Source of the DNA: Candidatus Thorarchaeota archaeon
GTDB taxonomy: Archaea > Asgardarchaeota > Thorarchaeia > Thorarchaeales > Thorarchaeaceae
Assembly: GCA_029855935.1 (NCBI GenBank)
Contig: JAGSHN010000004.1
Location: 118,022 to 182,021 of the forward strand
DNA length: 64,000 nt
Direction: 5' to 3'
The notes below the pieces were generated by a model. The model worked only from the letters and a program-made list of their open reading frames with translations, did not search any database and was not told where the DNA came from. The translations under genes and the position numbers were made by a program. Each line of letters opens with the position of its first letter. The stretch's first letter is position 1. Positions 39,531 through 40,089 of the stretch are shown here, piece by piece.

Positions 39531-39895
39531 TCCGTCGTTGTAATACCATAATTGAAGAGTTCAGAACAGGTGTTCTATCGCTTGAGGACCTATCGGTGTA
39601 TATTCTGTATGTATACGATTGCATCTCTACGGGAGCAAAGAATGCTAGACGTATATCGTTCACTAAGAGGCTCTTTGGGTATACCTACAGATGGCGTACT
39701 CGAGGCGGTTGGAAGACAAAACGCAAAGACGGGTTGTTGGATCTCTGTCCTGGTGCTAGACGAATCACCGATTCTGCGATCCTAGTCCCTGAAGAATGCC
39801 AATCAACATTCGACACACTCTTCACACAGTATCGTGATATTCTCAAAGTTTCCAGCTTTGCAGTTATGGAGATTATCTCAGAACACGTGTTCTAG
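39527..39895 (+). CDS. Small hypothetical protein, possible Cas2/VapD-like ferredoxin fold
   Basis: YILYVYD N-terminal strand, F.KRLFGY...GLL...SAILVP; start uncertain. Confidence 0.45.
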   Translation: MIRRCNTIIEEFRTGVLSLEDLSVYILYVYDCISTGAKNARRISFTKRLFGYTYRWRTRGGWKTKRKDGLLDLCPGARRITDSAILVPEECQSTFDTLFTQYRDILKVSSFAVMEIISEHVF

Positions 39896-40089
39896 AGCCT
39901 GTGGACCCCCTTATTTCGTGTGGAAACGATGGATCCTCTCGAGTCTGAAAGATGACCAAAAATATAAATAGCTGATTCTGCAGCTGATAATCATCTACAT
40001 TTCATTCACGACTTAGAAGTCACTGAAAGAAACTACATTTTGATTCTCCACTGGAAGTAGAGGGGAGTTGGGGTAGAACACGTGTTCTA
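39880..40089. other. Candidate replication origin (oriC)
   Basis: Inverted ORB-like elements at ~39904-39927 (-) and ~40045-40066 (+) flank an AT-rich ~117 bp spacer; identical AGAACACGTGTTCTA at both outer edges. Confidence 0.65.

Follow-up and report, generated by a model that had tools for sequence, protein, structure and literature searches.

Introduction

In oriC1 of Sulfolobus/Saccharolobus, two boxes enclose a duplex unwinding element (DUE) in the order ORB3-DUE-ORB2 and are bound by Orc1-1; a further box, ORB1, lies distally, and the ucm motif is bound by the protein UBP (PMC12141716). Binding of Orc1-1 to ORBs is monomeric and of defined polarity, and the DUE is flanked by ORB2 and ORB3 in inverted orientation (PMC12141716). 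The G-string of the box is contacted by the AAA+ domain (PMC3936714). In oriC1m of Haloarcula hispanica, an enhancer repeat and an AT-rich DUE lie between the two ORBs, the left of which (element I) carries its G-string as CCCCCC and the right (element II) as GGGGGGGG (PMC3936714). The oriC1 origins of H. hispanica and Haloferax volcanii directly adjoin cdc6, which is a common but not universal feature of origins. Sulfolobus oriC3 adjoins whiP and is an archaeal origin not next to orc1/cdc6, and the origin of Archaeoglobus fulgidus was mapped away from its cdc6 genes.

The stretch of DNA analysed here (the window) is 64,000 nt long and corresponds to G000:C17:118022–182021 in a Candidatus Thorarchaeota assembly of 32 contigs and 2.97 Mb. 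An initial annotation, made from the letters alone, had proposed an oriC in it. The anatomy of the site, its near-uniqueness in the genome, its deep conservation and its orthology to cdc6-1-linked ORB pairs elsewhere in Asgard archaea support this reading. Judging from sequence comparison, a 210-bp element in the window is very probably the chromosomal replication origin of a Thorarchaeaceae archaeon and belongs to the pan-archaeal oriC1 class. What appears to be new is an oriC1-type origin that has parted from its initiator gene, is bracketed by palindromes, has repeatedly been inverted and is coupled to an uncharacterised small gene.

Anatomy of the candidate origin

The features are listed below in window coordinates.

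36832–36854, + strand: ORB-A, a solitary near-consensus ORB, TTCCAGTGGAAACGAAGGGGTGG; orf243 and the NTase-like gene lie on either side of its gap (36656–36954); top ORB matrix score of the genome (39.7 bits)
39563–39576, no strand: pal1, palindrome AGAACAGGTGTTCT, one mismatch to pal2 and pal3; about 20 nt 5′ of the likely start of the small gene
39596–39895, + strand: the small gene, 99 aa; GTG start at 39596 from alignment with relatives, reading frame open from 39527
39880–39893, no strand: pal2, perfect palindrome AGAACACGTGTTCT, overlapping the stop codon of the small gene; left boundary of the core
39906–39925, − strand: ORB-B, TTCCACACGAAATAAGGGGG, G-string distal to the spacer; 21.8 bits
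39926–40045, no strand: AT-rich spacer, presumed DUE from its A+T content and duplex stability
40046–40073 (box itself 40046–40065), + strand: ORB-C, CTCCACTGGAAGTAGAGGGG, with a second G-run, AGTTGGGG; G-string on the end away from the spacer; 26.1 bits
40075–40088, no strand: pal3, perfect palindrome AGAACACGTGTTCT; right boundary of the core, about 70 nt 5′ of iorA
40160–42055, + strand: iorA (indolepyruvate:ferredoxin oxidoreductase alpha), assigned by Pfam; the conserved right-hand neighbour
23193–24419, + strand: cdc6-2, an Orc1/Cdc6 paralogue assigned by Pfam; loosely linked to the origin

The two ORB-like boxes of the initial annotation are present in the letters at 39906–39925 (−) and 40046–40065 (+), inverted around a spacer that had been put at about 117 bp and measures 120 bp (39926–40045), with 65% A+T compared with about 49% in the window. 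The small reading frame lies between pal1 and pal2, with a class-V aminotransferase-like gene as the left neighbour in the window; to the right follow iorA and iorB and then hypF on the opposite strand. Origins of the oriC1 class have at least two ORBs with a consensus core and a G-string, and three are found here, at 36832, 39906(−) and 40046(+). The inner two flank, in inverted orientation, an AT-rich and easily melted segment: by nearest-neighbour calculation, no 100-bp duplex in the window is less stable than the one lying in the spacer (ΔG −120.2; mean −142.4, s.d. 5.4). The motifs AAAATATAAATA, CAGCTG and ATCTnCATTT are conserved within the spacer, which also contains a TATA-like word upstream of iorA. 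A scan of positions 39300–40400 against Rfam gave no match to an RNA family.

The arrangement resembles Sulfolobus oriC1 in its inverted ORBs around an AT-rich unwinding element, its third ORB further off and the short conserved motifs in the DUE. It differs in that genes and a distance of 3 kb separate the third ORB from the core, that the initiator genes lie 146 kb and 15.5 kb off, and that the core is bracketed by palindromes and has repeatedly been inverted. The G-strings point away from the spacer, as the initial annotation had described (CCCCC, spacer, GGGG in the letters of the window). Its view that this sets the site apart from haloarchaeal origins proved mistaken, as oriC1m of H. hispanica has the same outward polarity (PMC3936714); the oriC1 origins of H. 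hispanica and H. volcanii share with the present site both the inverted ORBs and the G-strings on their outer ends (PMC3936714, PMC1868953). Extra repeats near the ORBs are another common trait and modulate activity in the haloarchaeal origins (PMC3936714, PMC1868953). An extended G-string of the halophile type is, however, absent here beyond the second GGGG after ORB-C.

In origins that have been dissected functionally, the G-string lies at the end of the ORB away from the DUE, and so it does in the window and in all Asgard loci examined. This polarity fits the binding of Orc1-1 as a monomer with defined polarity, the inversion of ORB2 and ORB3 and the contact between AAA+ domain and G-string. 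By analogy, the winged helix would face the DUE.

ORBs are rare elsewhere in the genome

We searched both strands of the whole 2.97-Mb assembly with a loose ORB pattern, TCCA[CG]NNGAA N3-7 GGGG. It matched five times, and three of these matches lie within 3.2 kb at the candidate origin. A 26-nt ORB weight matrix built from the related loci (described below) gave, at a threshold of 20 bits, four matches genome-wide, three of them again at this site, and the matrix scan found just one full inverted ORB pair around a DUE. Given this rarity elsewhere, chance is no explanation for the cluster. The exact 14-bp palindrome AGAACACGTGTTCT occurs in two copies in the assembly, both bracketing the ORB pair.

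Outside the window, contig C14 contains a site resembling half an origin (C14:3725–3892; L205:1491–1658), with one strong ORB (28.3 bits), about 100 nt of AT-rich sequence and one GAACAGGTGTTC palindrome. It lies directly 5′ of a 126-aa gene without family, and a matching arrangement occurs in another Thorarchaeota genome (G041:1698049–1698200). Contigs C14 and C17 stand out in base composition. Their G+C content is lower (53.7% compared with about 56%), no other contig approaches their strand skew (t about 7), and both have sites combining ORB and palindrome near one end.

Nucleotide skew is weakly compatible with an origin at the site

The initial annotation had named nucleotide skew as a check. 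We computed it on the fragmented assembly with coding-strand bias regressed out. The strongest changepoint of the assembly (F 21) was on this contig, at about C17:166 kb. There the skew, at +0.043 on the left, changes to −0.035, and the element lies 8 kb further left. A cumulative GC-skew maximum at the origin is reported for haloarchaea (PMC1868953), and the C17 changepoint has this polarity. The switch is weak and its fit broad, and positions from 142 to 166 kb, near cdc6-2 among them, fit almost equally well. The skew of C17 is weakly compatible with an origin at the element.

A record titled as a Thorarchaeota 'chromosome' (CP070658.1; L076-L204; 2.58 Mb) consists of about 400 contigs joined by 100-N spacers. 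Its skew curve is therefore meaningless, and it is unusable for statements on whole-chromosome skew or gene distances. Published skew analyses, which did not use ORBs, disagree among Asgard lineages (PMC9246712, PMC11291895). In the closed Odinarchaeum genome, a tentative origin was set at a local skew minimum, position +1 (PMC9246712). If the Odin-like genome G026 is assumed to be that record, its ORB pair at 622.7 kb disagrees with the published position, which speaks against the origin reading.

Conservation across Thorarchaeota

Relatives were located through the product of the small reading frame in a collection with one genome per species, yielding 65 loci, nearly all from Thorarchaeota (Asgard) MAGs. 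All but one of 66 related loci contain the inverted ORB pair. Its core-to-core spacer is 120–132 bp long (median 125; 65 loci) and contains 70% A+T compared with 61% in the flanks. The proteins of the small gene in relatives are only about 39–58% identical to that of the window, and a spacing that stays fixed despite this divergence would be difficult to account for if the ORB pair had no structural role.

The usual order, kept in about 60 loci, is aminotransferase(−), NTase-like(+), orf243(+), further genes, SDH-like(−), small gene(+), core, iorA, iorB and hypF(−). Synteny in relatives, which the initial annotation had suggested as a further check, thus holds for the gene order in about 60 loci as it does for the ORB pair, and iorA lies downstream of the core in 61 of 65. 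The third ORB is conserved as well. It was found in the gap between NTase340 and orf243 in all 44 full-length related loci, 3–4 kb from the core with genes between, and the ORB matrix, run over the 44 full 12-kb loci, scored 44 times in this gap, 43 times on each side of the core and twice elsewhere. The gene orf243 itself is well conserved (57–67% identity) and has no family match. We also considered an origin of a mobile element or integrated plasmid and rejected it on account of the single-copy module and the fixed synteny in about 60 genomes.

In the window, a 6-kb block (33205–39530; LKR/SDH-like, orf243, NTase-like and aminotransferase genes) is inverted relative to about 60 relatives. 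One breakpoint of this inversion is within about 35 bp of pal1; near the far one, no remnant of a palindrome was found at 33050–33200. The genome G003, of the same genus as the window genome, retains the usual block order.

The probable origin has parted from cdc6-1

The genome contains two Orc1/Cdc6 genes, both on contig C17. The distance of about 15.5 kb to cdc6 given in the initial annotation is correct, and the site is detached from cdc6 as stated there; the gene in question (23193–24419) is, however, the paralogue cdc6-2 and not the orthologue of the origin-linked initiator. That orthologue, cdc6-1, is located outside the window at C17:11031–12284, 146 kb from the ORB pair. Direct adjacency to orc1/cdc6, typical of the oriC1 class, is thus lacking in the window for both genes (15.5 kb and 146 kb). 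A search for an ORB-DUE-ORB unit beside cdc6-1 or cdc6-2 found none, and an origin beside cdc6-2 was rejected, its upstream gap containing no ORB above threshold. The gap of about 100 bp 5′ of cdc6-1 (C17:12288–12345) contains the degenerate inverted mini-ORBs CTCCATCGGAAGAGAGGG and CTCCATAGGAAAC, which look like sites of autoregulatory initiator binding rather than an origin.

Other Asgard families show a different layout. The small gene followed by ORB(−), an AT-rich stretch and ORB(+) is found in the Odin-like closed genome G026, the Frey-like closed genome G062, G030 and G025, the last from a sister family within the same order. In all four, the gene closest to the Thorarchaeota cdc6-1 (51–66% identity) lies 0.4–1.7 kb from the small gene or its ORBs. 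The more divergent G045 likewise has a cdc6-1-like gene near the small gene, with no ORB over the matrix threshold, so that adjacency to cdc6 is found at the orthologous locus in G025, G026, G030, G045 and G062. Orthologues of cdc6-2 are 17–42 kb away in G026 and G062. The only two consensus ORBs of G026 (1.4 Mb) are identical, inverted and about 190 bp apart (G026:C1:622360–622883); they directly follow the small gene, with cdc6-1 a further 1.5 kb on. In G062 (3.58 Mb) the module occupies 1.6391–1.6400 Mb, and the 592-kb Thorarchaeota contig SHMX01000002.1 has one near 378 kb.

These cdc6-1-adjacent orthologous ORB pairs indicate that the ancestral layout combined cdc6-1, the small gene and oriC, and that in Thorarchaeaceae cdc6-1 was moved off by rearrangement while the small gene stayed with the origin. 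The orthology is the strongest argument for a classic cdc6-linked origin. Sulfolobus oriC3 and the A. fulgidus origin are precedents for origins without an adjacent orc1/cdc6 gene, from which the present case differs in that comparison with sister families shows how the state arose, and in the retention of a small gene that does not encode an initiator.

The ORBs could also be bound by Orc1/Cdc6 at a site that does not fire, whether a dormant origin or a site of regulation or titration, which would control transcription of the small gene or iorAB or buffer free initiator. Single ORBs do occur 5′ of genes (ORB-A at 36832; the half-site on C14 before the 126-aa gene), degenerate mini-ORBs lie in the cdc6-1 promoter, and negative control by an ORB cluster is documented for the ORB-rich oriC2D of H. 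hispanica (PMC3936714). This explanation has to accommodate, however, that the genome has no second complete pair of inverted ORBs with a DUE between them, that the spacer at this site is kept at 120–132 bp in 65 loci and forms the least stable duplex of the window, and that neither cdc6 gene has another origin-like site beside it. We consider it unlikely.

Palindromes bracket a core that has been inverted

As a lineage-specific addition, a palindrome of 12–14 bp, GAACAYRTGTTC, stands on each side of the core and upstream of the small gene. In nearly all 65 loci the first copy precedes the match to the small gene by about 25–48 nt. The second is at the stop codon of the gene and the third on the outer side of the far ORB; a fourth copy exists in some loci. 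The core between the second and third palindromes is asymmetric, with one stronger ORB, oriented inner motifs and gaps of 11 nt on one side versus 20–54 nt on the other. Of 57 scorable loci, 13 have the unit inverted in its entirety, from palindrome to palindrome, and so does L006, from the genus of the window genome. All features are mirrored together in the inverted loci, the gaps being swapped from 11/54 to 54/11. L040 and L052 share about 90% identity in their flanks, and the 222-bp unit of one is a clean inversion of that of the other (81.5% identity as reverse complement versus 64% forward), placing the breakpoints at the palindromes. The core has thus been inverted several times in evolution, sometimes recently.

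The 14-bp palindrome occurs in 4–15 copies per genome in most Thorarchaeaceae, compared with 0–2 for a control pattern; the window genome is at the low end, its two copies both being at the origin. Two genomes of family f21 (G067 and G074) have 21–23 copies of the 14-bp palindrome RGAACAYRTGTTCY, far above other families, which points to an enlarged number of sites or to a repeat element in this family. Heptamers GTATTAC/GTAATAC, often paired, are found directly beside the extra palindrome copies next to the core in many relatives (L015, L017, L022, L024, L028, L047, L050 and L073), and this heptamer also occurs at 39535–39541 of the window. Association of the palindromes with the small gene is not complete: Odin-like genomes have the small gene without palindromes, and family f5 has one or two palindromes with no small gene detected.

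As in Hin/Fim-type switches, the invertible segment is bounded by inverted repeats. The unit could accordingly be read as a promoter switch carrying the word TATAAATA, which would drive iorAB or, when flipped, run antisense to the small gene, with the ORB-like boxes being secondary. The 13 of 57 inverted loci together with L006, the swapped gaps and the clean inversion between L040 and L052 would all suit a switch of this kind. We nevertheless regard it as very unlikely. A scan of the neighbouring genes found no recombinase family, several of the neighbours having no family at all, and no recombinase gene is among the conserved ones; each genome has a single orientation, with nothing to indicate switching within a population. 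The ORBs, moreover, fit the pan-archaeal consensus, the module is linked to cdc6-1 in other families, and an Odin-like genome has the ORB pair without palindromes.

That the palindromes are ordinary operators with an incidental likeness to ORBs nearby is highly improbable. Repressor sites would agree with the 4–15 copies in most Thorarchaeaceae (control, 0–2) and with the position of pal1, which follows a TATA-like word and precedes the start codon, as expected of a repressor site in archaea. They leave unexplained, however, three ORBs that fit the 19–20 nt consensus in full, G-string included, the inverted pairing of ORBs at a constant spacing and the linkage to cdc6-1 elsewhere. They are also compatible with the origin, as an added layer rather than a replacement for it.

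A small protein encoded next to the probable origin

The protein of the small gene has 99 aa in the window and about 96 aa in relatives and is basic (pI 9.5). The gene was found in 70 of 201 genomes of the phylum, including families beyond Thorarchaeaceae. A word-indexed homologue search returned two proteins and an exhaustive profile search 16 representatives; no family was found for it in Pfam, NCBIfam, PDB sequences or the ESM Atlas. The AlphaFold model, which is confident (pLDDT 92.6), predicts a ferredoxin-like fold with the order beta-alpha-beta-beta-alpha-beta and two long hairpins, the first of which holds the conserved motif WKTKSGxKxKRK.

Among the best structural matches are Cas2 chains (Z 6–7.1, r.m.s.d. 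2.7–3.0; 3exc with Z 7.1, 8ia4 with Z 6.9) and generic ferredoxin folds at Z of about 7; such values are common for this fold and indicate resemblance only. The protein shares with Cas2 (PF09827) and VapD-like proteins the beta-alpha-beta-beta-alpha-beta fold, and its residues Y7 and D8 are invariant, forming a Tyr-Asp pair at the end of strand 1 as in Cas2. It differs from them in its two long basic beta-hairpins and in its location, never beside cas genes and always at the origin. Cas2 is associated with cas1 and a CRISPR array; here, the neighbours in about 60 loci are an SDH-like or aminotransferase gene and iorA. Pfam, including the Cas2 model, gave no match to 33 members of the small-protein family at E-values up to 1, and a genome search with PF09827 recovered the true cas2 genes and not the small gene. 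Homology to Cas2 was rejected, the profile–profile comparison with hhalign giving a non-significant probability of 3.6%. Because PF09827 misses the gene and the profile–profile match is not significant, the modelled protein is best described as Cas2-like in fold only.

A dimeric DNA-binding protein, possibly the small protein itself, may dock on the palindromes. Bound there, the dimer would regulate the small gene and iorA and would shield or modulate the origin. The case for the small protein as the binder comes from its position, and the strong but imperfect co-occurrence of palindrome and small gene, with the exceptions of the Odin-like genomes and family f5, weakens it. In a wider, tentative scheme, which we regard as possible though doubtful, the protein would be an unrecognised Asgard origin-accessory factor, bound as a dimer to the GAACAYRTGTTC palindromes and controlling origin use, and the same sites would allow the core to be flipped as a cassette and its polarity to be reset. 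The accessory DNA-binding protein UBP of Sulfolobus oriC1 is a plausible parallel; UBP was absent from the fold matches listed for the small protein, and no PDB chain matches the small protein by sequence.

Discussion

By analogy with Sulfolobus oriC1, monomers of Orc1/Cdc6, most likely Cdc6-1 encoded 146 kb away, would bind ORB-B and ORB-C in opposite orientations, each with its winged-helix side toward the spacer and its AAA+ side on the outward G-string. Together they would load MCM onto the easily melted spacer of about 120 bp. Two points in the window itself weigh against an origin at this site. The initiator gene is not adjacent, and the TATA-like word in the spacer and the position upstream of iorA would allow a promoter role.

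Among known prokaryotes, Asgard archaea are most closely related to eukaryotes. The literature searched defines no Asgard origin at the sequence level and offers skew-based guesses only (PMC9246712, PMC11291895). The precisely delimited ORB-DUE-ORB unit would provide a concrete site for initiator binding, MCM loading and marker-frequency tests in Thor-, Odin- and Frey-type genomes. If the scheme for the small protein is true, it would be a functional counterpart of Sulfolobus UBP or of bacterial origin-binding regulators. The locus indicates that an origin can part from its initiator gene and yet keep an uncharacterised small gene and a palindromic site, and this retention of small gene and palindromes points to an extra layer of origin control.
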